64,000 nucleotides of DNA from an uncultured bacterium (GCA_963798465.1 CAWCTC010000001.1:4315-68314), one strand, 5' to 3'. Positions 3,471 through 63,781 are shown, counted from the stretch's first letter. Made by a program: numbers and translations. The notes: generated by a model not told the origin, from the sequence alone.

Positions 3471-4606
3471 CAAGAAAGCTTTTTATCTGTATCACAAAAT
3501 CAAATTGGGGTGGCGCTCAAAAATATGTTTTTGATATCGCAACAAGCACACCGAGAGATCAGTTCGACACAACGGTGCTTCTAGGCGGCAACGGCGACTT
3601 GAAGCGCAAACTTGATGAAGCCGGAGTCAAAACGATTCTCTTGGAAAATTCACAAAGAGATATAAACACAAAAAAAGAATTCGGACTGCTGTTCGAACTT
3701 ATAAAAATATTCAAAAAAGAAAAACCAGATATCATTCATTTGAACAGCTCGAAAATGGGCTTTACCGGAGCCATTGCGGGAAGAATTGCCGGAATCAAAA
3801 AAATTATTTTTACAGCTCACGGCTGGGCATTCAATGAAAACAGAAATTTCTTTTCAAAATGTTTTTTCAGAATTCTCCATAATCTGACGATAATGCTTTG
3901 CGACAATACTATTGCAGTATCGGAAATCACAAAAAATCAGATAGGAAAAATGTTCAGAAAAAAAATAGTTGTCATAAGAAACGGTTTGAGAGAAACTGAA
4001 TTGAAAGACAGAAATACGGCTCAGAAATTTCTTTCGGAAAAGATTTTGCAGCAAAATTATAAAGCCGGAAAAATTCTTGCTGAAAAACCGATTTGGATTG
4101 GCACTTTGTCCGAACTTCATACGACTAAAGGTTTGAATTATGCAATCGAAGCAATTTCAAAAATCCAGAGTAATGTAATTTTTGTTGTCATGGGCGAAGG
4201 AGAAAAAAGAAAAGAACTTGAAGAACAAGCTGTAAAACTCGGCGCTGGAAATAAAGTTTTTCTGATAGGCCATATTGATTGCGCTTCAACATATCTAAAA
4301 GCATTCGATATCATCACATTATCTTCAATCACAGAAGCACTTCCCTACATGCTGCTCGAAGCTGGCTATGCGTCTCTTCCGATTATCGCAAGCAACGTCG
4401 GCGGCATTCCGGAAATAATTGAAAATCAAAAAACAGGAATGCTTGTTTCTCCAAGAAATTCCGAAGAAATAAAATCTGCGATTGAATATTTGATAAAAAA
4501 CCCTGAAAAAGCAAGGTTTTTTGGGGATTCTTTAAAAGCAAAAATTTCCAAAGATTTTACCCAAAAAGCCATGGTAGAAAAAACTTTTGCTCTTTATAGG
4601 AAATGA
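3434..4606 (+). CDS. Glycosyltransferase family 4 (GT-B)
   Basis: 390 aa. Contains ...KSNWGGAQKYV... and the C-terminal EALPYMLLEAGYASLPIIASNVGGIPEII (E-x7-E region). The N-terminal 15 aa come from the repeat cassette. Confidence 0.85.
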   Translation: MLSSKQSENSHGARKLFICITKSNWGGAQKYVFDIATSTPRDQFDTTVLLGGNGDLKRKLDEAGVKTILLENSQRDINTKKEFGLLFELIKIFKKEKPDIIHLNSSKMGFTGAIAGRIAGIKKIIFTAHGWAFNENRNFFSKCFFRILHNLTIMLCDNTIAVSEITKNQIGKMFRKKIVVIRNGLRETELKDRNTAQKFLSEKILQQNYKAGKILAEKPIWIGTLSELHTTKGLNYAIEAISKIQSNVIFVVMGEGEKRKELEEQAVKLGAGNKVFLIGHIDCASTYLKAFDIITLSSITEALPYMLLEAGYASLPIIASNVGGIPEIIENQKTGMLVSPRNSEEIKSAIEYLIKNPEKARFFGDSLKAKISKDFTQKAMVEKTFALYRK

Positions 4607-4644
4607 TATAATGAACAAGTTATTAATTTAATTAATTTGAAATA

Positions 4645-4690
4645 GCATCGCGCTTAAAGGAGGACCGCGCGACGTAATTTCGCAAAATCA
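4645..4690 (+). promoter_or_regulatory. Two-hairpin leader motif, copy 1
   Basis: TCGCGC-TTAAAGGAGGACC-GCGCGA-CGTAATTTCGCAAAATCA immediately before the ATG at 4691. Confidence 0.6.
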
Positions 4691-4882
4691 ATGCCAGTAC
4701 AATTTGAAGAAGAACAGAATTTCAATGACAGCTATAATAAATCTATTTCAAAATCTAACTCGGGACTGACTGCGTGGATAATAAAAAAAGGCTGGGCAAA
4801 AGATGAGAAAGGCGCGAATTCCATGATGATTATCGTGACAATAATATGCTTTGCACTCGCGATATTCGTTTTCACCAGATAA
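4691..4882 (+). CDS. Small tail-anchored membrane protein, hypothetical
   Basis: 63 aa with a hydrophilic N-terminus and a C-terminal TM helix (MMIIVTIICFALAIFVFT). Preceded by the leader motif. Confidence 0.4.
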   Translation: MPVQFEEEQNFNDSYNKSISKSNSGLTAWIIKKGWAKDEKGANSMMIIVTIICFALAIFVFTR

Positions 4883-4892
4883 AATTCAACTA

Positions 4893-4935
4893 CATCGCGT
4901 CTAAATGACTTACGCGATGTGATTCCGCAGAATCA
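4893..4935 (+). promoter_or_regulatory. Two-hairpin leader motif, copy 2 (divergent, covarying)
   Basis: ATCGCGT-CTAAATGACTT-ACGCGAT-GTGATTCCGCAGAATCAA before the ATG at 4936, which opens an 18-codon GC-rich ORF (4936-4992). Confidence 0.45.
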
Positions 4936-5133
4936 AATGACCTCCTCCCCGGGCTCCGCTACGCTGCGCCCGGGGTTTCCTTTTAAAGCATGAGAATGCT
5001 ATTTAATTACTAATTCTCATGAATATATATAAATCACGTTTAGTGAACATGGTAGTACTTATCTAACCCCCGCCCTCCAAAGTTCTGAAAATGCCCTTAT
5101 CTAGGGGATGCTTCGGGCGGGGTTCTGGGAAAG

Positions 5134-5164
5134 AAAAGGGCGGCACCGAAGGTGCCGCCCTTTT
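5134..5164. terminator. Bidirectional Rho-independent terminator
   Basis: AAAAGGGCGGCACCGAAGGTGCCGCCCTTTT between convergent genes. Confidence 0.8.
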
Positions 5165-5202
5165 GTATTTGATTTTTTTATTGCGATTTTTTTTGATTTT
5201 TC

Positions 5203-6363
5203 TTACAATCCCAAAAATTCATTTTTAATAGTATCTTTGTGAGCATCTCTCCTGTATCTTCTCATACCCATGAGCATTCCGAGACCGGCGAAAGATGTCA
5301 GAAGATTTGTTCCTCCATAACTCATAAATGGAAAAGGAATTCCCGTGACAGGCATGAGACCTAGAGCCATTCCGACATTAACCAAAAAATGGCTCATAAA
5401 TAAAATTGCGAGGCCAAGCCCGAATAATATTTCAAAATTTGTCGCACCATAATATGCATTTGTGACAATTCTCCATATAAAAATTCCAAAAATAAAAAAT
5501 AATATTCCTACGCCAACAAGTCCCCATTCCTCGGCAAAAGCTGAAAAAATAAAATCTGACCTGTATTCAGGCAAAAATTTTAATTTTGATTGGGTTCCAT
5601 ATCCTATTCCCTTTCCCAAAAGTTCTCCAGAACCGATGGCTATTGCCGACTGATATGCGTTATATCCCGAACCCCTGACATCAGAAAGCGGATGCAAAAA
5701 ATTTATAACTCTCTGTTTTTGGTAATCTTTCAGTCCATAAACCCACAAAAGTGAAAAAACCGTAGCTCCAAAAATAAATACCATGAGAAGATGTTTTTTT
5801 GATATTCCGGAAACTAGGATCATGCCGAACCAAATAAGAAATATTACGAGAGCGGAACCAAAATCCGGCTGGAAAAAAACCAAAACAAAAAAACATAAAG
5901 TATAAAATCCTGAAACTAAAATGTGCCTTAAATCGGCGATTTCAACATGCCTTCTGGAAAAATATTTTGCTAGGAGAACAATCAAAACAAGTTTTACCGG
6001 ATCTGCCGGCTCAAAAGAAATTCCGCCGAAAGAAAACCAGCTTTCCGCACCTTTTGAAATGTGCCCTAAAACGAACAACGCTGACAAAAGTGCCAGAGAA
6101 ATCAGAAATATACTTACAACAACATTTGTTTTATTAAGAAATCTGTAATCTACAAAACTAAAAACAAAAAAAACTATTATGGAAACAACCAGCCATATCA
6201 GCTGTTTTTCCAAAAAAGTATCTCCGCTTTCAAATGATGACATCGTCAAAAGTCCAAGACAAGAAATAGCGATTGCAGAAAAAAACATCATCCAATCTAT
6301 CTTGAGATTGGAAAAAAAAGAAAATATGCCAGAATTGGTTTTGTGTTGTGACTCAATCAGCAT
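5203..6363 (-). CDS. SEDS family peptidoglycan glycosyltransferase (FtsW/RodA/SpoVE)
   Basis: 386 aa and polytopic. Contains ...QPDFGSALVIF..., ...GSGYNAYQSAIAIGSGELLGKGIGYGTQSKLKFLPEYRSDFIFSAFAEEWG..., ...PFPFMSYGGTNLL. Confidence 0.9.
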   Translation of the reverse strand: MLIESQHKTNSGIFSFFSNLKIDWMMFFSAIAISCLGLLTMSSFESGDTFLEKQLIWLVVSIIVFFVFSFVDYRFLNKTNVVVSIFLISLALLSALFVLGHISKGAESWFSFGGISFEPADPVKLVLIVLLAKYFSRRHVEIADLRHILVSGFYTLCFFVLVFFQPDFGSALVIFLIWFGMILVSGISKKHLLMVFIFGATVFSLLWVYGLKDYQKQRVINFLHPLSDVRGSGYNAYQSAIAIGSGELLGKGIGYGTQSKLKFLPEYRSDFIFSAFAEEWGLVGVGILFFIFGIFIWRIVTNAYYGATNFEILFGLGLAILFMSHFLVNVGMALGLMPVTGIPFPFMSYGGTNLLTSFAGLGMLMGMRRYRRDAHKDTIKNEFLGL

Positions 6364-7655: not shown

Positions 7656-8048
7656 AAAAAATTCAACTATAAACTATCGTGAAAATACTCAAAATATTTT
7701 TTGAATTAATTCCACATAACAGGTTAAAACAAAATGATTTGTGTATTTTTAAATTTCCTAATAAGAATCGGAAATTAGTATTGCTCGCCTGAACGCATTA
7801 CTCCACTTACAGCTGCAACCTATCACCTGATCATCTCTCAGGGTCCTCAAACGAATTCTAATCTTGGGGACGGCTTCACTCTTAGATGCTTTCAGAGTTT
7901 ATCCGTTCCGAACATAGCTACTCTGCGTTGCCCTTGGCAGGAACAGCAGATAGACCAGAGGTCCGTTCAACTCGGTCCTCTCGTACTAAAGTCAAATCCC
8001 CTCAAAATTCTACGCCTGCAGTAGATAGGAGACCAACCTGTCTCACGC

Positions 8049-8543
8049 ATGTTATCACAAATTACTCTGTGCATTGGACTATAGCTTATCCGAAAATTAA
8101 ATTTCGAGACTGTTGGTGTTTAGTCTCTACGGGTATTTATGAATTTCGTTGAAGTGTCAATTTTATAAAAGAAATTAGCTGGTCGAGGGGACAGGATTTT
8201 CACCTGAATGTCTTTGCCTATTGTAACAGCAACGCTCTTCTGAGGCGTACTCCTCCGAACTTATATTTTCATTAATATATACTTCAACGAAATTCACAAA
8301 CTTCCCTCGGTATAATCCACTTTCATGGACTCCACCGATACTAATCAACTTGATCATAATATTTTTATAAATATCAGACCGCCGTGATTTGATTGTGTCT
8401 TCTCTATCTATTTATATTCAATAACAAAATTTCTCATCCTGTTATGAGTTTATAAACGAAAATTTTCTAGTTCTAATACATAACAATTCCTCGATGGGAT
8501 TCAAACTGTCCAGATAACAAATAATTACTTTGTCTTCTGAACG
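8049..8543 (-). other. Intervening sequence in 23S domain V (group I-like intron, no endonuclease ORF)
   Basis: It interrupts ...GCGAGCTGGGTTCAAACCGT | CGTGAGACAGGTTGG. This is the site homologous to E. coli ~2593, the I-CreI-type homing site. About 495 nt with long internal stems (for example 8141-8155 pairs with 8284-8298). The only ORF is 60 aa with no endonuclease motif. Confidence 0.55.
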
Positions 8544-9204
8544 GTTTGAACCCAGCTCGCGTATCTTTTTAAATGGCGAACAGCCATACCCTTGGGAGCT
8601 TCTCCACCCCCAGGATAAGATGAGCCGACATCGAGGTGCCGAACTCCGCCGTCGATATGAACTCTTAGGCGGAACTAGCCTGTTATCCCTAGAGTAGCTT
8701 TTGTCCGATAATCTTCGGCCGCGTCTAATGCGGACGGTCGGTTCACTTTGCTCTGCTTTCGCATCTGCTCGACAAGTACGTCTCGCAGTCAAGCCAGCTT
8801 TTGCCAATACACTATCGGCACGGTTTCCATTCGCGCCTAGCTGACCTTAATAGACTCCTCCGTTACTTTTTAGGAGGATAGCGCCCCACTAAAACTACCC
8901 ACCAGATACTGTTTCTATGCGTTTTTTCCGTCAAAGGTTAGAATATATATTCAAAAAGAATGGTATTTCACTGACGGATCCATCTTCCCCGAAAGAAAAA
9001 CTTCAAATCCTCCCATCTACGCTACGCATTCAAAACATATACTCAATATCAAGTTGCAGTAAAGCTTCTAGGGTCTTTTCGTCTAACTGCAGGTAACCGG
9101 CATCTTCACCGGTATTGTATTTTCACCGAGCTGATCTTCGAGACAGTTCCCCACTCATTACACTATTCAAGCGCGTCTGAACTTACCAGACAAGGAATTT
9201 CGCT

Positions 9205-9429
9205 CAACCATTCCTCAAACGTTGGACTCTATCTTAATCCTCTAATAAATTAATTAAAATTTTTTCGTAGGATCCATGACGTTGGTCTCTTGTTAACCAT
9301 GTTGCGGACTAAGTGCAAATTACTTTGCATTAGGTAGCTACTTATTTTGTGTAATGCTAATTCATTTATCAAGGCCATAAATTTGCAACAGTCCTAGTCC
9401 TTCTGAAACTTTCTTGCGAAAGTTCCAGA
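9205..9429 (-). other. Intervening sequence in 23S domain IV (small group I-like intron)
   Basis: It interrupts ...ACGGTCCTAAGGT | AGCGAAATTCCTTGTC just 3' of helix 69, about E. coli 1925-1931. Length 225 nt, no ORF. Confidence 0.55.
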
Positions 9430-9464
<35 letters not shown>

Positions 9465-10273
9465 CAGGGCTTACAACAATCACCATTACCCTTGCGGATA
9501 ACAACGTCGTTAGTTGACCTTCTGGCATTGGTCAAGTGTCACCCCCTATACATCCTCTTACGAGTTCGCAGGGAGCTGTGTTTTTGATAAACAGTTGGCA
9601 GGGATACTTTAGCTGCGGCCCAAATAAATTTGGGCAAGCCTTATCCCGAAGTTACGGCTGCTTTTTTGCCGAGTTCCTTGAAGATCTATCACTCGTTCAC
9701 CTTACTCTACTCGAGCTGACCACCTGTGTCGGTTTACGGTACGGTCTTTACATATTTAAGCTTAGAGACTTTTCTCGGAAGCTTGCTTTGATAAATCCAC
9801 CACGGCGAACCGTAATATTTTCGCTGCGCTTTCGCTTATCATTAAAGAAAGAATTCCGGATTTACCTGGAACTCGCAATTACGCCACGAACGCAAATCCA
9901 ATAATGCGCTTATCATACTAAGCTTCGTCCTCCCATCGCAATATATAAAAGTCATGGAATATTAACCATGTGTCCATCGGGTGCGGCTTTCGCCATCCCC
10001 TTAGGCCCGACTAACCCTTCGCTGATTGTCATCGCGAAGGAAACCTTGGTTTTTCGGCGTGCGGGGTTCTCACCCGCATTGTGGTTACTTGTGCCAACAT
10101 TCTTACTTCAACACGCTCCACCATGGGTCACCCCTTCGCCTTCATCGCAGAGTTGAATACTCTCCTACCAATATAAATGTCCGAAGACATTCATAGTCCT
10201 CAGTTTCGGTACCATGTTTAACCCCGATTATCTGCGGCGCAAAATCTCTTAGTGAGTGAGCTGTTACGCTATC

Positions 10274-10305
<32 letters not shown>

Positions 10306-10810
10306 TCACTGTCTGAGAAAAATCACCACCTTAAGTGTACTTAACATAGATTTAGGGACCTTAAATAGAGATCCGGGCTGTTTCCCTTTTGACCATGGGG
10401 CTTAGCCCCCACAGTCTAACTGCCGAATAATTTACTTCATGGTATTCGGAGTTTGATAGGTCTTGCGATATTTCGACCTGTCAAGACCTTCCAGTGCTCT
10501 ACCCCCAGAAGGAACATGCAACGCTAGCCCAAAAGCTATTTCGGAGAGAACCAGCTATTACCAGGCTCGATTAGCTTTTCACTTCTTACCTCAAGTCATC
10601 CGAGAGTATTGCACGGCTCACCGGTTCGGACCTCCCCTCTGATTTCTCAAAGGTTCATCCTGCTCAAGATAAGCTCGCTCTGGCTTCGGGTCTGATGTAT
10701 AAAACAAACGCGCTATTCACACTCGGTTTCCCTATGGCTCCACCCGGTAAAGGGCTTAGCCTGCTTCATACATCAACTCGTTGGCTCATTCTTCAATAGG
10801 CACGCCGTGA

Positions 10811-10920
10811 CGGACAGCACATAACAAGTCAAAATTTATAAAGTCGAAATTCGAAATAAATGCTATTGCATATCCTTTAGACTTTATGGACTTTGGACTT
10901 TTCACTGGCTTGTGCTGCCC
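10811..10920 (-). other. 23S expansion hairpin (domain II variable helix)
   Basis: GGGCAGCACAAGCC...GGCTTGTGCTGTCCG-type long hairpin of ~110 nt, inserted between conserved GGAGTCGGAGC and TCACGGCGTGCCTATTGAAG. Confidence 0.5.
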
Positions 10921-10978
10921 GCTCCGACTCCTTGTAAGCATATGGTTTCAGGTCTATTTCACTGCCCTCACCGGGCTG

Positions 10979-11015
<37 letters not shown>

Positions 11016-11228
11016 ATCTCTAAAAATATTTAGCCTTACCGGTTAGTTCCGGCAGATTCCCTCAAGCTTTTCGTGTCCTGAGGTACTCAAGAATAATAAC
11101 GGAAAAGATATTTTATTTTCGCTTACGGGACTATTACCCACTAGGGTTCTGCTTCCCAGCAGATTCTGCTAACAAAATATTTTGTAACTTTTCTCATCTA
11201 TAAATAAATGACGTCATCATCTTACTAC

Positions 11229-11520
11229 ACCGATCACAAACTTTATGTACAAATTTTTCGTACTAAATAGTGGAGGCGAGTCATAGAATTTTTTTAGTGT
11301 TCTATGTTGTTACTCGCCCGTGGAGCTTGTTAGTCACAAGACAAAAAATCGGGGAAACCGAATGATCCTGTTAAAAATAACTAACTCACCTGGATATCCA
11401 ATTTCAGAGCTGCAGCCCTGAGTGCGGTTTCCAATAATTGAGAAACCCTATTGGGAATATCCTAATGCTCTCCACTATTTAATACAAAAAATAAATTTAT
11501 ACACAAAGTTTGTGATCGGT
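11229..11520 (-). other. ~290-nt structured insertion in 23S domain I
   Basis: Closed by a 16-bp stem (11229-11244 with 11505-11520, ACCGATCACAAACTTT/AAAGTTTGTGATCGGT), then an 11-bp stem (AAATAGTGGAG/CTCCACTATTT). Lies just 3' of AGTAGCGGCGAGCGAA in rRNA sense. No ORF. Confidence 0.5.
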
Positions 11521-12212
11521 TTGGGCTGTTTCCTTTTCGCTCGCCGCTACTAGGGAAATGTTGTTACTTGCGTAACATTGTTTTCTATTCCTCCAGGTAC
11601 TGAAATGTTTTACTTCCCTGGGTATGCATATTGCATCAAGTGCAATATAACCAATAAAATTGGCTGAGTTACCTCATTCGGAAATCTCTGGATCAAAGGT
11701 TGCTAAGCACCTCCCCAAAGCTTATCGCAGCTTAACTACGTCCTTCATCGCTTATTAGAGTCAAGGCATCCACCGTACGCCCTTAAATTTCCCATTAGGA
11801 AATTTAAAAACCACAATCTTTAAAAGTTTACGTTATAAACTTTAAATTTGTTTTAACCTGTTATATGGAATCAATTCCGTATAACAGTCTTATCAAAATT
11901 AATTGATAAAATTTTTTTAAATCATTTCAATCTCTCTCCAAGAAAAATTGAATGATTCACCTGCCTGCCTATAGCATCTATAAAAGACCCAATCCACTTA
12001 TCATGGAAAATTGGTAATGCTATGACAGAATGAAGATGTAAATTTTAATTATCATCCGCTAGGATAATCTCTGAAATCTTAATCTTATTTTTCAAGTTTC
12101 AATCTTTCTGATGAAAAAATCGCCTTTCGGCGACTAGTAGACAACATCAAAGATGCATCTATATAAGCCGCTTTAAAATTGATTTCTTGTATAACATATC
12201 TGTGTAAGAACG

Positions 12213-13314: not shown

Positions 13315-16077
13315 TTAAAGCGGTTTTTCATTTTTCTTATATTTTTCCATAATCGCTTCCTCAACTTCTGCTCGGTCGCGACCATACTTAAGATATGATA
13401 ATTCTTTGATTTTATCAAGCAAAAGTTTGTTTCCTCTTGGCGGAAGATTTGTTTCCATACTAAATGGTTTTATCGGTTGGCCATTTGCGAGCATTTTTAC
13501 ATATGAGTTGTGCATCTGCAAATTCATCAAATCTTTTGGTGTGAATACTGGAGCAAATTGTTTCGCCAAATATTCTGCATCTTCAGAGCTGACGCGGAAT
13601 GCAGCCATCGAGCCGACGTTTCCAAATACAGCGTTCTTAATTCTTTCATCAAGTTGTGCAATATATTGATGAGCAACTGTAAGCGCTAATTTATATTTCC
13701 TTGCCTCTGAAAGAATCATGGAAATAGAATCTGTTGTTACATTTTGGAACTCATCAATGTAAAGATAAAATGGTGGCAAATCTGTTCCAAAAGAATCCAC
13801 ACGCGACATAGCCGCCATTTGAAGTTTGCCGACAATAATAAGCCCGATGAGATTTGAATTGATTTCTCCAAGTCTTCCTTTTGCAAGATTTACAAGCAAG
13901 ATTTTCTTATTGTCCATGATATCTCTGAAATTGAATGCGGATTTTTCCTGAGAAACTATCGGGCGCATAATATCGTTTGAAAGAAATACGTCAAATTTGT
14001 TCGTGATGTACGGAACAAAATTAGCAAGTCCGCTCTCGCCGGTAGTTTTTACGGCATTTGCCCAAAATTGATTTATGAGAGGATTCTTGCATTTAGAAAG
14101 TTTCATTTCTCTGAAAGTTTTATCAGAAAGGACGCGGGCGATATCAAGAAGAGTATTTCCAGATTCCGGATCTTCCATCACGAGCAACGCGGAATTTCTA
14201 AAGTATTGTTCAAAAGCCGGACCTCCAGCAACTTTCATGTCAAAAAGCTTATTGAAAATAGAAAGCATTTCATTAACAACGAAAGTTTTTTGTTCCGGAA
14301 ATTTTCTATCGTATTCAAGCATGTTCAAACCCATAGGTCTTTCAGTGTGACTCGGATCAAAATATATTACGTCTTCATATCTTTCCGGCGGAATAAATGA
14401 AAGAACTTCCTGAATATCCGAACCATGAGGATCAATCATGCAAACGCCTTCGCCATTCAAAATATCTTGTCGTATCATCGTCTTCAAAAGAGTCGTCTTA
14501 CCTGTACCGGTTTGTCCTATGATATAAAAATGTCGCAATCTGTCTTCAACTGTAATTCTTATCGGTGTTCTTACATTCCTGTGGACATTAGTTCCAAGCA
14601 AAATTCCATGATCCGGCAAATCAAGCGGTGCCGGCGCAGTAATCGCGTTTGACTGTTTAAGCTGCGATGCTTCGCTGAAATCATTTTCCGGAAGATGAAA
14701 GAGAGTTGTGAGTTCTTTCAAATTTAAAACCAAATCATTTTTCTCGTTGAAAATTCTGAAAGAAAAATCGCGGGACATTTTCAAAAGTTCGCTTCCTTCA
14801 ATTCTTTTGAATCTAAATTTATTCCCCTTCGTATTTTCAAATTGATTGAAAGATGATTCAATATCGGAAAGAATTGCTCCGGCTTCCTCTCTAGAATTTG
14901 ACGAAGCCATTATCCTTATATTCACGCTCGCGAGCGGAGCATCAATTTTTAATTTTATATTATCTATAATATCCTGATGTGAATCTTGAGGTTTTTTCTC
15001 ATCATCTGTCTTTTTATTCGAACTTAAAATCTCTTTTCCTACCTGTTTGAAAATACCGGCAAAAGAGATGTCCGCTTTTTCGTAAGCTTCTTTTAATTTT
15101 GCGCCTTTTTCAACTTCTTTCAGGACTCTTTTATACAAACTCATTTCATTAGGTGCCGGCTTGACTATTATCTGTATTGCGGCTCCCTCGCCGTTCTTGT
15201 CCACCTTTGAAAAACTGTTCAAAATAATTTTCAGCGGATCATAATCATAATTGTCATATGTCTTTATTGGAAAAATATCGTCAGTTGAAAACTCCGCATA
15301 GGAACCGACAAAATCTCCGGCCTCATTAAAAATATTATAATCATCTTTTTTCTCGGTAATCCTTACGTCCGAAAAAGTGGATTGTATTTGTGTTTCAAAA
15401 AGGGTTTTTTTGCTGTCCGGCACGGCGATATAAAAAATTATTTCACTGCTGAAATTCGCCTTCGTCAGTTCCAAAACAAAATAGTGATTGTAACTATCGT
15501 CATTGTCTTCCACCGAAAACATGCCGGAATAAAACTGTTCCATCTTTGAAATAAGTTCTTCTAGTGCCTTATTTTTTTGGGTTTCATCTTTATTTATTCC
15601 AGGGAGTGAAACTTCAAAAAGCGTCATCTTGAGCGCTTTAAAAATAGGATTTTTTTCGTTGTCATTTGCAACTCTGAAACCGGCTTTTATATATTGAACC
15701 AAAAATCTGTGAAAATCATCTTCAACATGCGGATCTTTTAATCTTTCGACAATTGAAAGAGCATTCAAAACTCCTTTTTCTTGAAGTACATTTACAAGCT
15801 CTCCCATTTTTTCATCGTGAGCTTCAGGAGACAAATCAAGTACAATTGCTTCAACTTCATGCTGTTTTAAAATATAATCTTTATCTAGAATATCTTCTGG
15901 CTTTTTTTCGGCATGTTCGGCCAATTCCCTTTTTATTACTTCTTCTCTTGAAATCACCTCACCTTTTTCGGCTAGCATTTTTTCATGACTTGAAACTTTT
16001 GCACGCAAATAATTTAGCTCCTCTTCCGGAGTTTTAAATTTTTGTTCTATTCCTTCATTTCCGAATTGTTCAGCCAT
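13315..16077 (-). CDS. Type IV coupling protein-like (TraD/VirD4/TrwB-family) P-loop ATPase with large uncharacterised N-terminal half
   Basis: Walker A is YIIGQTGTGKTTLL and Walker B is FYLYIDEFQNV. The C-terminal block KYKLALTVAHQYIAQL...GNVGSMAAFRV is typical of T4CP/TraG-D_C. I set the start at MAEQFGNEG (16077) because the leader motif abuts that ATG. The track ORF extends to 16110. Confidence 0.75.
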   Translation of the reverse strand: MAEQFGNEGIEQKFKTPEEELNYLRAKVSSHEKMLAEKGEVISREEVIKRELAEHAEKKPEDILDKDYILKQHEVEAIVLDLSPEAHDEKMGELVNVLQEKGVLNALSIVERLKDPHVEDDFHRFLVQYIKAGFRVANDNEKNPIFKALKMTLFEVSLPGINKDETQKNKALEELISKMEQFYSGMFSVEDNDDSYNHYFVLELTKANFSSEIIFYIAVPDSKKTLFETQIQSTFSDVRITEKKDDYNIFNEAGDFVGSYAEFSTDDIFPIKTYDNYDYDPLKIILNSFSKVDKNGEGAAIQIIVKPAPNEMSLYKRVLKEVEKGAKLKEAYEKADISFAGIFKQVGKEILSSNKKTDDEKKPQDSHQDIIDNIKLKIDAPLASVNIRIMASSNSREEAGAILSDIESSFNQFENTKGNKFRFKRIEGSELLKMSRDFSFRIFNEKNDLVLNLKELTTLFHLPENDFSEASQLKQSNAITAPAPLDLPDHGILLGTNVHRNVRTPIRITVEDRLRHFYIIGQTGTGKTTLLKTMIRQDILNGEGVCMIDPHGSDIQEVLSFIPPERYEDVIYFDPSHTERPMGLNMLEYDRKFPEQKTFVVNEMLSIFNKLFDMKVAGGPAFEQYFRNSALLVMEDPESGNTLLDIARVLSDKTFREMKLSKCKNPLINQFWANAVKTTGESGLANFVPYITNKFDVFLSNDIMRPIVSQEKSAFNFRDIMDNKKILLVNLAKGRLGEINSNLIGLIIVGKLQMAAMSRVDSFGTDLPPFYLYIDEFQNVTTDSISMILSEARKYKLALTVAHQYIAQLDERIKNAVFGNVGSMAAFRVSSEDAEYLAKQFAPVFTPKDLMNLQMHNSYVKMLANGQPIKPFSMETNLPPRGNKLLLDKIKELSYLKYGRDRAEVEEAIMEKYKKNEKPL

Positions 16078-16127
16078 AATTAATTTTGCAAAATTACGTC
16101 GTGCAATCATCCTTTAAGCGCAACGCT
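16078..16127 (-). promoter_or_regulatory. Two-hairpin leader motif, copy 3
   Basis: Coding strand: GTTGCGC-TTAAAGGATGATT-GCACGAC-GTAATTTTGCAAAATTAATT-ATG. Confidence 0.55.
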
Positions 16128-16187
16128 ATGCAAATTATATCATAATAAATTGATATTTTGCACCAATAATGCCTCAATCTTCTCTCT

Positions 16188-21656: not shown

Positions 21657-21700
21657 TTTGATTTTCAATCACGTCGCGCGACGTCCTTTAAGCGACAATC
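21657..21700 (-). promoter_or_regulatory. Two-hairpin leader motif, copy 4 (inside the r-protein operon)
   Basis: Coding strand: TGTCGC-TTAAAGGAC-GTCGCGCGAC-GTGATTGAAAATCAAA-ATG. Confidence 0.5.
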
Positions 21701-21710
21701 TCAAATTATT

Positions 21711-22244
21711 TTATGCGGTTTTCTTTCCTTCTTTTCTTCTGATGACTTCGCCTTCAAATCTTATTCCCTTTCCTTTATAAGGTTCAGGTTTTTTTATTGC
21801 TCTCAATCCTGAAGCAAAGCTGGTAATCAATTCTTTATCTATTCCCGTAATTACCACAATTCCTTTATCTAAAGACTACTTTTAATCCTGCAGGAATTTT
21901 TACTTTTACAGGATGAGAAAAACCTACTTTAAAGTGATGTCCGTAGGAGTAACGTCGGCTTTATATCCGACTCCTTCAACAATCATTCTCTTTGCCATAA
22001 CCTTTATTCACTCCTTCTACCATATTTTGAATATGAGAAGCATAAGTTCCCCAAAGCGCTTTGTTTTCCAAAGAATCTTTGACAGGTTTAAGCTGACTTT
22101 ATTTCCTTCAACAGAAATAACTATATTTTTTTTGAAAGTTCTTGAAAGTTCTCCGAGTGGACCTTTTACGCTAACAACATTGCCGTTTACTTTAATTTCG
22201 GTCTTTGCTGGTATTTCTATTCCTTTTTTTCCTAATCTTGACAT
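21711..22244 (-). CDS. rplF: 50S ribosomal protein L6 (several frame changes)
   Basis: N-terminus [37 protein letters not shown]. The C-terminus [25 protein letters not shown] is in another frame. The interior is readable only by frame-hopping. Confidence 0.8.
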
Positions 22245-58916: not shown

Positions 58917-59600
58917 ATATTCTAGATGATCTTTTAATGAATCTGCGGGAATAAAAATATCTGAATATTTATATAATTCTTCACTTACAAAATCACGCGT
59001 ACAGATAGTAATAACTTTTTTCTTTTTTGATTTTACATATTGTAAAAGGGTATGAAAATCACTATCACCAGACCATAAAAAAATAGTATCGTATTTTTCC
59101 ATCTGTTGAATTATATCCATAGTCATTTCAACATCAAAATTACATTTATTTATTTTACCCAAAAATTTTCCGTCTTCATCAAAATTATGAATTTCTTTAA
59201 TATCTTTGGTTCTAACTTTAAACCCAGACTTCCTTGCTTTATCTATTCTATATATAGACTGTCTATATTTTAGATTTAAAGTGTTTTCTGGCGCAAGACC
59301 GGGAAATTCTTTGTAATGACCATAATAAAAATACTTACGTTCAGGACAAATAATATTAATAATATCTGCAATTTTCGAAATATCTATTTCCCTTTTTAAA
59401 TATTCTTTATTTTCTGTTGGCCAAAATTTTTTTGCCCAATTACGCACATTTGCAAAATCAACAAAAACAAATATTCTTCCACAACCATCTGTTTCAAATA
59501 GGTAAAGTTTTTTAAAATGCTGATTTTTTAGTTCATCAAGATTCATAATAACAATAATATCACATAACAATATAGTAATTGCCCTAGAAATATATCTCAA
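58872..59600 (-). CDS. NYN (LabA/DUF88-like, PIN-fold) domain protein; probable start MNLDELK at 59546
   Basis: ...RIFVFVDFANV..., KCNFDVEMTMDIIQ, IFLWSGDSDFHTLL. Confidence 0.75.
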   Translation of the reverse strand: MRYISRAITILLCDIIVIMNLDELKNQHFKKLYLFETDGCGRIFVFVDFANVRNWAKKFWPTENKEYLKREIDISKIADIINIICPERKYFYYGHYKEFPGLAPENTLNLKYRQSIYRIDKARKSGFKVRTKDIKEIHNFDEDGKFLGKINKCNFDVEMTMDIIQQMEKYDTIFLWSGDSDFHTLLQYVKSKKKKVITICTRDFVSEELYKYSDIFIPADSLKDHLEYIKTNPPERLSSGEV

Positions 59601-59646
59601 ACTATGTTTATTTAATTAATTGAAATCAGTCGCTTAAATATACAAA

Positions 59647-60849
59647 CTACTTTCTAAGTATTTTATCAATCCTCTTCGCCAATTTAATCATATCTCTCTC
59701 CTTTGCTCCTCTCGTAGTTTCTCCTGCAGTACCAAGACGGATTCCTGAAGGATCCATCGGACTTCGTGTTTCGTTAGGAATCGTGTTTTTGTTCACGATT
59801 ATTCCGGCTTTTTCAAGCTTTGTCGCCGCTTCTTCCCCGCTTATTCCTTTGCCTTCCATCCAAGTATCAACAAGAATCAAATGGCTGTCTGTTCCGCCAG
59901 AAATTATTTTCCAGCCAAGTTTTTTCAATTCTTCCGCGAGAACTTTTGCATTTTTCACAACTTGATTTGCATATTTTTTAAATGCTGGCGAATGCTGCTT
60001 CCTTTAAAGCGACTGCGACGGCAGCAACTTGATTCATGTGAGGTCCGCCTTGAAGTCCAGGAAAAACCGCTTTGTCTATCAAATCGCCGAAACTTATTTG
60101 ATTTCCTTTTGCACTCAATTGTGTTTTATCATTTCTTGAAAAGATAAGTGCACTTCTTGGACCGCGTAGAGTTTTGTGAACTGTTGTCGTCACAACATCT
60201 GCATATGGAAATGGAGACGGATATGCTCCACCTGCAACAAGTCCGGCAAAGTGCGACATGTCCACCATGAGTATCGCTCCGCATGCGTCTGCAATTTCTC
60301 TGAACTTTTTGAAATCTACAATTCTTGGATATGCAGTGAAGCCGGCGATAATCATATTCGGTTTATTTTCCATAGCAATTTTTTTGAGTTCATCATAATC
60401 AATCACTTCAGTATTTTTATTTACTCCATACGGAATTTGAGTCCAGATTTTTCCTGTCGCAGAAACTTTGTGTCCATGCGTAAGATGTCCGCCGTGAGAA
60501 AGCGACATTCCCATAACTTTTCCTCCGATAGGAACAAGTGCAAGATACACTGCCAAGTTTGCCGGCGAGCCGGAAAGTCGCCTGAACATTTACATGCCAG
60601 ATCATTTTTATCCAAACCAAAAGCTTTGAGTGCCCGTTCTTGCGCGAGTTCTTCAAGCTTGTCAGTATTTGTCTGACCTTTGTAATATCTTTTGTGCGGA
60701 TAACCTTCGGAATATTTATTTGTAAACTTCGAGCCGAGTGCTTTCAAGACATCATCCGAAACATAATTTTCCGATGCAATAAGAGAGATGGTTTTTTTCT
60801 GCCTTGCTTCCTCCGCTTTTATGAGCTTTTCGATTTGTTTGTCTTTCAT
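59647..60849 (-). CDS. glyA: Serine hydroxymethyltransferase (2-3 frame changes)
   Basis: [51 protein letters not shown]..., [35 protein letters not shown] (PLP-Lys), ...[13 protein letters not shown]. Confidence 0.88.
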
Positions 60850-60900
60850 TTTTGATTTTGCAAAATCACGTCGCGCAACCGTCCTTTTAGCGCGACGCAA
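60850..60900 (-). promoter_or_regulatory. Two-hairpin leader motif, copy 5
   Basis: Coding strand: GTCGCGC-TAAAAGGACGGTT-GCGCGAC-GTGATTTTGCAAAATCAAAA-ATG. Confidence 0.55.
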
Positions 60901-61074
60901 TCGTATTGTTAATGGCTAATAATTAATTATATATAGAATATCACTAAAATACAGGTCATGCACTGTCATTTAATAAATGATATAATCCAGGAAAGAGTTA
61001 GTTGATTTTTATTTATAAATGAGTAACATTGCAACTAGACGAAAAGTTGTAAAAATAATATAAGGAGGAAAAAA

Positions 61075-61917
61075 ATGAAACAGTACAATGATGTTTTGAA
61101 AGAGATTTTCGAAAAAGGCGTAGACCGTAAGGGCAGAAATGCAGTAACGAGAGCTTTGTGGGCAAAGCAGTTGCGTTTCAATCTGGAAGATGGTTTCCCC
61201 GCAGTCACCACAAAACAGCTTGCATTCAATGCTGTCAAAGGCGAACTTCTCTGGTTTATCGAGGGTAGCGGAAGCGACAAGAGACTAAAAGAGATCATGG
61301 GCAAAGATGGAGTGCCGGCGAAGCATACAATCTGGACTGACAACGCCGAAGCTCCCTACTGGAAACCGAAAGCAAAGTTCGAAGGAGACCTTGGAAGGAT
61401 TTACGGTATGCAGTGGAGACACTGGAAGAGACCCGATGGAACTGAAGTAGATCAGCTGGCTGAAATTATCGAGAGAATCAAAAAGGATCCGAACGACAGA
61501 CGTCTCATCGTCACTGCTTGGAATCCTGGCGAGCTCGACCAGATGGCTTTACCTCCATGTCACATGACTTTCCAGTTTTTCGTTGCGAATGGAAAACTCT
61601 CGCTTCACATGCTTCAAAGAAGCTGTGATATGTTTTTGGGAGTTCCCTTCAACATCGCGTCTTATGCTCTGCTTCTCGCAATGGTCGCACAAGTAACGGA
61701 TTTGAAACCGCACGAGTGCGTTCTTACTCTCGATGATGCTCATATTTATCACGAGCACTTTGATGCAGTAAAAGAACAGCTCACGCGCAAGCCGATGAAG
61801 TTGCCTAAACTCTGGCTCAATCCGGATATAAAAGATATTGATAAGTTTACGATGGATGACATCAAACTTGTCGACTACGAACATCATCCAGCAATCAAGG
61901 CAGAAATGATCGTCTAA
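61075..61917 (+). CDS. thyA: Thymidylate synthase (ThyA)
   Basis: 280 aa. ...DRKGRNAVTRALWAKQLRFNLEDGFPAVTTK..., IWTDN, LPPCHMTFQFFV (catalytic Cys), SCDMFLGVPFNIASYALL. Canonical SD (AAGGAGG) 7 nt upstream. About 50 percent GC in sampled stretches. Confidence 0.95.
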   Translation: MKQYNDVLKEIFEKGVDRKGRNAVTRALWAKQLRFNLEDGFPAVTTKQLAFNAVKGELLWFIEGSGSDKRLKEIMGKDGVPAKHTIWTDNAEAPYWKPKAKFEGDLGRIYGMQWRHWKRPDGTEVDQLAEIIERIKKDPNDRRLIVTAWNPGELDQMALPPCHMTFQFFVANGKLSLHMLQRSCDMFLGVPFNIASYALLLAMVAQVTDLKPHECVLTLDDAHIYHEHFDAVKEQLTRKPMKLPKLWLNPDIKDIDKFTMDDIKLVDYEHHPAIKAEMIV

Positions 61918-61958
61918 ATTTAACTGGTCTAAAAAATCAGTTAGAAAAGGAGAGAGAA

Positions 61959-62453
61959 ATGTTTTCAATAATTGTAGCTATTGCAAAAAATGGAGTAATC
62001 GGAAACAAGGGAGAAATTCCATGGTATCTTACCGATGACTTCAAACGCTTCGCCAAAATCACAAAAGGTCACACTGTGATAATGGGCAGAAAAACGTATG
62101 AGTCCATATTCAAAAGACTGGGCAAACCGCTTCCGGAAAGAACAAACGTTGTTATAACAACGCAAAAAGATTTTTTGGCTCCTGGATGCACAGTTCTTGA
62201 ATCTGTTGACGCAGTAATTCATTTTTTTTCGCAAAGCAAGGAGGAAATTTTCGTAATCGGTGGAAGCACTATATACAATCAGTTTCTTCCGATAGCAAAA
62301 AAGCTTTACATCACTGAAGTTGATGCAAATTTTGAAGGCGACACAGTATTCAATTATAATAAAAAAGATTGGACACTGTCTTCAGAAGAACATCACTCGA
62401 AAGATGAAAAGCACAAATATGAGTTTGATTATCTTGAACTCGTGAAAAAATAA
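61959..62453 (+). CDS. folA: Dihydrofolate reductase
   Basis: MFSIIVAIAKNGVIGNKGEIPWYLTDDFKRFAKITKGHTVIMGRKTYESI...VIGGSTIY. SD AAAGGAG upstream. Confidence 0.9.
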   Translation: MFSIIVAIAKNGVIGNKGEIPWYLTDDFKRFAKITKGHTVIMGRKTYESIFKRLGKPLPERTNVVITTQKDFLAPGCTVLESVDAVIHFFSQSKEEIFVIGGSTIYNQFLPIAKKLYITEVDANFEGDTVFNYNKKDWTLSSEEHHSKDEKHKYEFDYLELVKK

Positions 62454-63223: not shown

Positions 63224-63781
63224 CTAGTTTTTTAAAATATCACCAATTATCTTGTCTGTCTGATAATAAAGCTCATCTAAAGTTCCGCTATTGTCGATTT
63301 TTAATTTTGCAAAATCCATGACGACAGGAATTTCTTTTTCGGCTTCATTGTTTTGGTCAGCTAAAAATTGTTCATACGTTTTGTCCTTGTCGCCGGCATT
63401 CTCATTCCTGTTTTTCATTCTTTCATATCTGATTTGCGGATCGGCATCGACTCTTATCAAATAAAAATTCGGCAAGTCTTTCAAATATTTTATATCGGCC
63501 ATTCTTCTCACGCCGTCCACGATGACAATATCGGAATCTAGATTTGATGCATCTTTTGCAATAACTTTCGCTAAAAGATCTTCGCCGAAAGCGCCGCGCA
63601 ATACTGTGGAAATCTTCTGTAAGTTTTCTCTACTTTCAGAAATATCAAGTCTTTTTACAACATCGCGAAGCGGAGTAGAAAATCTGCAATCTTCAATATT
63701 GTATTTTTGCGCCAAATATTTTTTGGCGGCTCCTTTTCCGCACGCAATTTGCCCGACAAGTCCGATGATTATTTTTGACAT
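63224..63781 (-). CDS. P-loop nucleoside/nucleotide kinase-like protein (dNMP kinase / dephospho-CoA-kinase-like)
   Basis: MSKIIIGLVGQIACGKGAAKKYL (Walker A), ...IVIVDGVRR..., 185 aa. Specificity is not assignable from sequence. Confidence 0.5.
   Translation of the reverse strand: MSKIIIGLVGQIACGKGAAKKYLAQKYNIEDCRFSTPLRDVVKRLDISESRENLQKISTVLRGAFGEDLLAKVIAKDASNLDSDIVIVDGVRRMADIKYLKDLPNFYLIRVDADPQIRYERMKNRNENAGDKDKTYEQFLADQNNEAEKEIPVVMDFAKLKIDNSGTLDELYYQTDKIIGDILKN

Follow-up and report, generated by a model that had tools for sequence, protein, structure and literature searches.

The 64,000-nucleotide stretch of DNA analyzed here (the window; GCA_963798465.1 CAWCTC010000001.1:4315-68314, from an uncultured bacterium) has a G+C content of 35% and holds a ribosomal-protein operon together with the housekeeping genes typical of a small genome. 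At five sites within it, an element of two hairpins stands just upstream of an ATG. The present study reveals that this element is real, that several groups of the ultra-small Parcubacteria conserve it, and that no described RNA family fits it. It represents a new family of RNA motifs, classed as a structured leader linked to start codons, and its setting is unusual: a lineage that appears to lack the anti-Shine-Dalgarno (anti-SD) sequence and is rich in leaderless mRNAs, with one copy of the element per roughly 10 to 13 kb.

The element comprises a GC-rich stem of 9 bp (stem 1) with a loop of 11 to 14 nt, followed without a gap by a weak AU hairpin of 5 bp with a YGCA loop (hairpin 2) and by an invariant A. 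The extents given below run from the first paired base through this A. The five copies (c1 to c5) align over ~46 nt, from the GC-rich inverted repeat to the A, and the ATG begins 0 to 3 nt further on. The original prediction had placed five copies in the window, each on the strand of the following gene, and both direct reading and a covariance model confirm all five places. Run over the 64 kb with filters off, the model returned exactly these sites (30.9 to 72.5 bits, E = 2e-14 to 5e-5), and its weaker matches were only the opposite strands of c1, c3, and c5. Therefore, no copy had been overlooked. A site at 63303 from a palindrome search was rejected, as it lies within a gene and is without the rest of the element. 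RNAfold forms stem 1 in c1, c2, c3, and c5, and hairpin 2 in c2 only.

Copy c1 (4645-4690, + strand; 60.5 bits, E = 1e-11) directly precedes the ATG, at 4691, of an open reading frame (ORF) of 63 aa. Its stem 1 consists of a 5′ arm at 4645-4653 (GCATCGCGC), a loop at 4654-4666 (TTAAAGGAGGACC), and a 3′ arm at 4667-4675 (GCGCGACGT); hairpin 2 spans 4676-4689 (AATTTCGCAAAATC) and the invariant A is at 4690, leaving 0 nt before the ATG. A TATAAT at 4607-4612 (+) within TGATATAAT, 33 nt upstream of stem 1, is likely the -10 element of the predicted c1 transcript; a two-hexamer promoter scan did not pick it up. Copy c2 (4892-4935, +; 60.4 bits) starts 10 nt past the stop codon of the 63-aa ORF and is of a variant type. 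Stem 1 is formed by 4892-4900 (ACATCGCGT) and 4912-4920 (ACGCGATGT) around the loop CTAAATGACTT. Its hairpin 2 at 4921-4934 (GATTCCGCAGAATC) is the stronger one, at -3.9 kcal/mol, and the A at 4935 is separated by a single a from an ATG at 4937. Directly 3′ of c2 lies a terminator-like hairpin (4947-4985, +), in which the GC-rich CCCCGGGC...GCCCGGGG is followed by TTTCCTTTT. The 18-codon ORF that the original prediction counted among the downstream genes overlaps this GC hairpin and T-tract, and it is probably not a gene.

The remaining copies are on the - strand. Copy c3 (16081-16126; 61.1 bits) precedes a TrwB/TraG-like ATPase with its ATG at 16077-16075. The arms of stem 1 are at 16126-16118 (GCGTTGCGC) and 16104-16096 (GCACGACGT), the loop reads TTAAAGGATGATT, and hairpin 2 (16095-16082, AATTTTGCAAAATT) is followed by the A at 16081 and a 3-nt ATT spacer. 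Here, a candidate -10 hexamer, TATAAT at 16134-16139 within TGATATAAT, ends 7 nt before the first base of stem 1, so that the predicted c3 transcript would begin at the foot of the element. The loop of c3 holds an in-frame ATG (16110-16108), which the ORF finder chose as the start of the TrwB-like gene (931 aa); because of the conserved element, the start at 16077 (920 aa) is favored over it. Copy c4 (21659-21696; 30.9 bits, E = 5e-5) is the weakest, with a 5-bp stem (GTCGC/GCGAC), the loop TTAAAGGACGTCGC, GT, a shortened hairpin 2 (GATTGAAAATC), the A, and then aa before the ATG of rplR at 21656-21654. It occupies the whole spacer between rplF, with its stop codon at 21713-21711, and rplR, the L18 product of which was confirmed by Pfam. 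An exact-protein look-up for other assemblies or transcripts gave no identical record for this L18. Copy c5 (60853-60898; 72.5 bits, E = 2e-14), the nearest to the consensus, consists of GCGTCGCGC, the loop TAAAAGGACGGTT, the 3′ arm GCGCGACGT, the hairpin 2 GATTTTGCAAAATC, and the A, then AAA before the ATG of glyA at 60849-60847.

Spread, fold, and variants of the element

Scanning a single genome per species for the 3′ block of the element, CGACGTRATTTYGCAAAATYA, we obtained 67 loci (labelled L001-L067). All except one, a chance match in Lactobacillus, come from metagenome-assembled genomes of Patescibacteria/Parcubacteria, as judged by record title or by carriage of the element, and they represent roughly 40 genomes. 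The record titles name Paceibacterota, Nomurabacteria, Yonathbacteria, Kaiserbacteria, and Minisyncoccia; of these names, Yonathbacteria and Kaiserbacteria were checked and are separate candidate phyla of the Parcubacteria group by NCBI rank. In ‘Patescibacteria bacterium bog_1341’ (PLOL01), which shares ~97% identity with the window, loci L005 and L061 correspond to c1 and c5. The covariance model was built from 56 foreign copies together with c2, c3, and c4, with c1 and c5 entering only via the identical copies of L005 and L061. It finds ~77 copies in the 67 loci, about ten of them outside the search pattern. Across the titled candidate phyla, the 3′ module fits a 21-nt pattern with just three 2-fold degenerate positions. 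Such near-invariance argues for a conserved partner that recognizes it.

The sequence matches nothing described. In the window, only the 23S and 5S rRNAs reach the gathering score of Rfam release 15, and permissive searches were likewise empty for the element, both in three loci (E <= 1) and over 4600-5250 (E <= 10). Literature searches by topic and by literal sequence yielded no description of the element, and the sole relevant paper covers anti-SD loss in Parcubacteria.

The outer 6 bp of stem 1 are fixed in sequence (GCGUCG/CGACGU) and the inner 3 bp covary, whereas hairpin 2 follows the consensus GAUUU-YGCA-AAAUC and the A after it is invariant in 77/77 copies. The computed stability of stem 1 is ~ -15.9 kcal/mol, and that of the AUG-adjacent hairpin 2 is marginal (-1.6 kcal/mol). 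When the two-hairpin fold is imposed on the alignment, 95 to 96% of cells are standard pairs and 9 of the 14 pairs have changed on both sides. None of 500 shuffles attained the observed values of pairing and covariation, and shifting the partner by 1 to 3 columns lowers pairing to 17 to 50%. RNAalifold recovers both hairpins unprompted. The inner pairs of stem 1 have changed from CG to UA 14 times, from GC to AU 9 times, and from CG to GC 3 times, and hairpin 2 varies in its closing and top pairs (GC to AU, UA to CG). A repeated two-hairpin element with covariation, as originally predicted, is thus upheld.

Next to an AUG, hairpin 2 is of the weak GAUUU type in nearly all copies. The stronger GAUUC type (-3.9 kcal/mol) occurs in copies that are nested within another copy or have no following gene, c2 being the sole free-standing copy of this kind. 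Nesting was found in at least 7 loci, where a full second element sits in the loop of the first at TG^AC and generates a three-way junction; the inner copy brings a GGAC-type loop of its own, and its hairpin is stronger (GAUUC in most, GAAUC-type in L001 and L043). Three copies of one genome (JBBACS01; L023 6000-6114, L052 5570-5684, and L046 3787-3892) hold, between GCGAC and CGACGT, an insert of ~55 nt composed of a hairpin plus AAGTRCYCYTGTGGTR and flanked by a CGAC direct repeat. Two of these are identical, and the insert resembles a very small mobile sequence with the element as its target.

In the predicted ensemble of the copies with no spacing to the ATG (26 loci), the invariant CGU that closes the 3′ arm of stem 1 is able to pair with the AUG, in which ~65% pairing is predicted for the U and the G. 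This alternative would lengthen hairpin 2 across the start codon at the cost of the outer pairs of stem 1.

Start codons, genes served, and the Shine-Dalgarno context

The wider motif and covariance search, with distances to start codons tabulated, substantiates the predicted one-way link to start codons. An ATG lies 0 to 6 nt past the invariant A in 65 of the 82 copies (32 at 0 nt, 18 at 1 nt). It opens an ORF of at least 60 aa in 57 of the 82 (44 of them at 0 to 1 nt), as against 2.3% of random positions. The copies are co-oriented with the downstream gene and keep next to the ATG even behind upstream spacers of 100 to 700 nt. About 20 copies, c4 included, fill the complete spacer between co-directional genes, with the preceding stop codon 0 to 13 nt before the element. 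The element is seen both behind promoters at variable distance and as a whole operon spacer. Upstream TATAAT hexamers stand at variable distances, with a slight excess (11/78, as in c3) at -12/-13 relative to the first paired base; this weak peak does not uphold a fixed promoter-to-element distance.

The genes served are a housekeeping set with no single pathway. The Pfam families downstream include L10, L18, S18, NusA, SerS, CysS, ParB, TGT, FolD, an arginase-family enzyme, a Mur ligase, an aminotransferase, AtpG, AtpC, GlnA, a NYN-domain protein, YqeY, SecF, Hsp20, and TrwB/TraG-like ATPases. GlyA and many small membrane proteins are also found downstream of the element. It recurs at the same gene across genomes: four times at nusA and twice each at serS, folD, and the genes of the NYN-domain, arginase-family, and TrwB-like proteins. 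Since the genes served are functionally unrelated, the element is better viewed, as originally proposed, as a general module than as a metabolite riboswitch, which was rejected because the downstream families share no pathway or transport function.

It had also been noted that none of the five genes has a normally placed Shine-Dalgarno (SD) sequence. This is true but not special to them, as SD sequences are nearly absent throughout the window, with the exception of thyA and its neighbor. SD-like pentamers precede ~6% of 473 gene starts in the window and L001-L067. TATAAT-like hexamers in front of these 473 ORFs show a sharp maximum at 12 nt from the ATG (52 genes, with a further 22 at -13). 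Such an arrangement is typical of leaderless mRNAs and indicates that a large share of the mRNAs in these Parcubacteria are leaderless. The element itself follows no SD logic either. Of 70 simple loops, 65 contain GAC, 44 GGA, 21 AGGA, and two, c1 among them, a GGAG/GAGG core; many of the loops have the sequence AAUCGAC, AAUUGAC, or UUUGAC.

The sole 16S rRNA 3′ end from an element-bearing genome (L025 3627-3668, - strand) reads GGAUUAAUUCAAUU, ...GUGGAUUAAUUCAAUU, and is without CCUCC. The same is true of most of ~110 16S 3′ ends from related contigs of the candidate phyla radiation (CPR), which belong to a comparison set of 120 metagenome loci (L068-L187) picked by a CPR-type 16S signature. 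The anti-SD has been reported as lost in about half of Parcubacteria (PMC9297842). The CPR 16S tails read GAUUAAUUCAAU(U/G)UG, GAAUUAUUCAAGUG, AACAAUUAAAUUG, and similar, and many of them are self-complementary; unlike the anti-SD loss, this self-folding may be unpublished. There is a likeness in layout between the element and helix 45 of 16S rRNA with its tail: both have a GC stem, with GGAC in the loop of the element and GGAA in that of the 16S rRNA, followed by GAUU and a mini-hairpin. Nevertheless, a mimic of helix 45 and the tail was rejected, since the model has no match at the L025 16S end (filters off, E <= 10) or at the ~110 others. Comparison of the element with 23S, 5S, and 16S rRNA for complementarity or identity gave only 8- to 9-mers at chance level.

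Possible modes of action

The reading that we favor, tentatively and at somewhat less than an even chance, is that the element is a lineage-specific structured RNA module within the mRNA, which would set the use of the abutting AUG without SD pairing. Adjacency to the AUG with strict orientation, conservation across the titled candidate phyla, the weak type of the AUG-adjacent hairpin 2 in nearly all copies, and the occurrence in leaders as well as operon spacers together point to a cis-acting RNA module with a conserved partner. The host context, with its leaderless signature, rare SD motifs, and reported loss of the anti-SD, is in keeping with this. The module would probably act through a conserved trans-acting factor, either a protein that binds RNA or the small ribosomal subunit, which would dock on the stable hairpin with its GAC loop and on the fixed junction. 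Hairpin 2, being weak, would then have to melt for its A-rich 3′ arm and the AUG to enter the mRNA channel, and binding of the factor would therefore set how often the adjacent AUG is used. Lone copies before terminators, or tandem copies, could titrate the same factor. The action as RNA, the binding of a factor, and the direction of the effect are all proposed here from comparative sequence data.

Copies without a gene can be considered in this light. At least 8 of them have an intrinsic-terminator hairpin within 60 nt downstream (for example c2 and copies in L042, L054, L063, L019, and L066). Those of c2, L042, and L019 are in the 3′-untranslated region of the preceding gene, because they start within ~10 nt of its stop codon, and those of L054 and others stand alone between opposite-strand genes. 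In L066 (1829-2822), three copies lie in 1 kb of noncoding DNA, each after a AAGGAAATTGTCTATTAGTTT-like repeat and none before a gene; this region may be a multi-site decoy RNA or a decaying array. The gene-less copies before terminators and the L066 triple fit a decoy role.

Four observations weigh against an RNA module that sets AUG usage. The stems, excluding the terminal pair, contain 10 G·U against 23 A·C mismatches; as G·U is not above A·C, the usual strand-specific mark of an RNA helix is missing, which counts slightly against one. At the atpD-atpC junction, one genome has the element and another a 2-nt stop-start gap, and orthologous junctions elsewhere have a 2-nt stop-start overlap or a plain AT-rich spacer instead. 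These junctions manage otherwise, and thus the element is dispensable there. About 20% of the copies (~17 to 25) are without a gene, the next ORF being absent or of only 12 to 21 codons. Furthermore, the model finds no element in 650 to 670 kb of the other CPR contigs, even at E <= 5; the 120 loci of this comparison set amount to 0.76 Mb. Since these contigs are mostly without the anti-SD, the element is not a general SD replacement and is restricted to a subset of the group.

A more specific proposal, possible although on the unlikely side, is that the element is a dedicated SD-independent start-site device of a lineage without the anti-SD tail, many of whose mRNAs begin at the AUG. The hairpin would dock on the vacant platform or SD-helix region of the small subunit, or on a lineage-specific initiation or processing factor, perhaps as a mimic of helix 45 and the self-folding 16S tail. 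Docking would either put the AUG, 16 nt downstream, in the P site or cause cleavage at the invariant A; in both cases, genes within operons or far from their promoter would acquire a ‘leaderless-like’ start. If true, this would amount to a novel mode of start-codon selection in bacteria.

The main rival to an RNA module acting at the AUG is a processing, or punctuation, site, which we consider unlikely. Here, an endoribonuclease would cut at or near the invariant A and create an mRNA that starts at or 1 to 6 nt before the AUG, ready for leaderless initiation, while the upstream fragment would keep a protective 3′ hairpin. The invariance of this A, the tight spacing (never more than 6 nt), and the leaderless signature 12 nt before the ATG agree with cleavage, as do the ~20 copies in co-directional spacers, where a leaderless start could not otherwise arise. 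But more than half of the copies are in spacers of at least 40 nt or after an opposite-strand gene, some with -10-like hexamers, so a leaderless start would be possible there without the element; copies directly before terminators would gain nothing from cleavage; and the weak AUG-adjacent hairpin is apparently selected, which suggests that the ribosome meets an mRNA that still carries it. With 9 bp, stem 1 is also too short for RNase III, hairpin 2 has only 5 bp, and ARAGORN recognizes no tRNA-like fold. Rather improbable is a repeat akin to repetitive extragenic palindromes (REP) or miniature inverted-repeat transposable elements, namely a selfish or structural spacer hairpin, at most mRNA-stabilizing, that lies near ATGs as a by-product of short intergenic regions. 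Dozens of copies per genome, their presence in operon spacers and before terminators, the nesting of whole copies, the identical ~55-nt insert in two copies of one genome, and the tolerance of A·C mismatches are all repeat-like. Against this, the element strictly adopts the orientation of the downstream gene, hugs the ATG behind spacers of 100 to 700 nt, and accompanies the same genes in different genomes (nusA, serS, folD); a neutral repeat would not be expected to keep a 21-nt pattern across the titled candidate phyla, and the viral contigs searched contained no copy.

A signal at the DNA level, either the two palindromes as the operator of a dimeric DNA-binding protein or an alternative-sigma promoter for transcripts starting at the ATG, appears very improbable. 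Each half is an inverted repeat, with GATTTTGCAAAATC forming a perfect palindrome of 14 bp, conservation is high even within the paired regions, and the mismatch count carries no RNA-specific signal. Yet the inner pairs of stem 1 co-change, which a duplex operator would not need, many copies are within operons, and the hexamer at -12 to -7 from the ATG is TTYGCA and not the TATAAT of leaderless genes in the same genomes. The operator entertained in the original prediction is disfavored, since changes in the arms preserve pairing rather than sequence and the element always points the same way as the gene. Direct reading of the element as a sigma-70, sigma-54 (GG-N10-GC), or extracytoplasmic-function sigma promoter was rejected on misfitting spacing and hexamers. 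We give equally little credence to a sensor RNA, such as a global-signal riboswitch or an RNA thermometer that opens the weak hairpin 2. Its structured core is conserved, an ATG or a terminator comes next as in the classic pair of expression platforms, and hairpin 2 is marginally stable, with the CGU:AUG pairing at hand in the predicted ensemble; but the genes served share no pathway, the terminator-linked copies have no downstream gene on the same strand, no alternative pairing is conserved, insertion of whole elements is tolerated in loop 1, and Rfam gives no match even at E <= 10. Hardly credible, finally, is the mechanism originally put forward, in which the folding of hairpin 2 moves an SD displayed in the loop to a working distance from the AUG, a mechanism known from phage T4 gene 38. 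It drew on AAAGGA in the loops of 4 of the 5 window copies, with AAAGGAGG in c1. In the wider set, GAC is the conserved triplet and the GGAG/GAGG core is found in 2 of 70 loops; SD usage is ~6% in these genomes; the L025 16S end is without CCUCC, in line with the published loss of the anti-SD (PMC9297842); and the putative SD would be enclosed by a stem of ~ -16 kcal/mol.

Among known systems, CsrA/RsmA hairpins resemble the element in placing a purine-rich loop motif beside the start codons of unrelated mRNAs, and its free-standing or tandem terminator-ended copies could titrate a binder in the manner of CsrB/RsmZ decoys. A CsrA/RsmA site has an invariant GGA in the hairpin loop, usually overlapping the SD, which CsrA normally occludes. 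In contrast, the element has GGA in only 44 of 70 loops (UGAC, CGAC, or other in the rest) and conserves GAC instead; moreover, its unit is 46 nt long with a second hairpin and a fixed stem sequence, and the host offers no SD to occlude. The split or structured ribosome-binding sites of phage T4 genes 38 and 25 likewise have a hairpin between a distal purine-rich motif and the AUG, but the element lacks a conserved SD, comes from hosts related to one without an anti-SD, presents the purine motif in a closed loop, and is a multi-copy family. With phage T7 RNase III sites and mitochondrial tRNA punctuation, it shares a structured intercistronic spacer that ends at the next AUG and the translation of leaderless mRNAs. 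A T7-type RNase III hairpin covers about two helical turns (~20 bp) and is mostly paired, whereas stem 1 is too short at 9 bp, there is no tRNA-like fold, and many copies are in monocistronic leaders.

REP with their bacterial interspersed mosaic elements (BIME), enterobacterial repetitive intergenic consensus (ERIC) sequences, and Correia elements are also multi-copy GC-rich spacer hairpins, found in operon spacers and at gene 3′ ends and with nested copies; unlike them, the element has a single orientation, abuts the ATG, and is kept at orthologous genes across the titled candidate phyla. The regulons of iron-responsive elements and iron regulatory proteins, and the leader operators of ribosomal proteins, combine one hairpin type and one factor with 5′ (translation) or 3′ (stability) placement. 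This analogy is only conceptual, as they have no similarity to the element in sequence or structure. Further candidates were rejected on structural grounds. An intrinsic terminator is at odds with the loop of 11 to 14 nt (versus 3 to 8 nt) and the tail GATTTYGC, and the terminator scan does not report the element. ANTAR target RNAs have two tandem hairpins, each with a hexaloop bearing conserved A1 and G4, while the loops here are of 11 to 14 nt and 4 nt. A tRNA-like punctuation element is not compatible with two simple hairpins and no cloverleaf.

Parcubacteria/Paceibacteria are among the most abundant uncultured bacteria. The presence of the element at the starts of core genes (nusA, serS, atpG, rplJ, rplR, tsf) offers a testable handle on how Parcubacteria find their start codons. 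If it recruits ribosomes or defines mRNA 5′ ends, it would represent a new mechanism of initiation; if it is the operator of a global regulator, it would define the first post-transcriptional regulon in this group. In practice, the element would help to correct gene-start calls, as for c3, and to reduce spurious mini-ORFs, such as that after c2, and it could provide a portable expression signal for the genetic tools under development for Patescibacteria.

Surroundings of the element in the window

The 23S rRNA at 7755-11799 (- strand) exceeds the Rfam bacterial model by ~1.1 kb, suggesting that it carries one or more insertions or introns. A 5S rRNA is present as well, no 16S rRNA adjoins, and ARAGORN detected no tRNA or tmRNA in the 64 kb. 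The gene after c5 was rightly named glyA, but in the window it is frameshifted: glyA (59600-60849, -) and rplF (21711-22244, -) are each broken by several mutually compensating frameshifts. As the indels are outside homopolymers, the breaks reflect either assembly error or real decay. In the PLOL01 contig (L061), 97% identical to the window, glyA is intact (399 aa). Use of UGA as a sense codon was rejected as the explanation, since it does not lengthen the long ORFs; the breaks are frameshifts.

The 230 nt 3′ of c2 (4937-5170, +) fold unusually well (z = -6.6). The region comprises the GC hairpin and T-tract mentioned above, another hairpin, a long one formed by ACCCCCGCCC...GGGCGGGGUU, and, at 5134-5164, a strong bidirectional terminator. 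It matches no Rfam family and, judged from its modeled structure, may be a small RNA of an undescribed kind. Lastly, thyA and the next gene are the sole genes of the window with canonical SD sequences (AAGGAGG/AAGGAGA; 61060-61075 and 61945-61959, +). They sit in a patch of 41% G+C, against 35% elsewhere, and this patch may be a recent acquisition.

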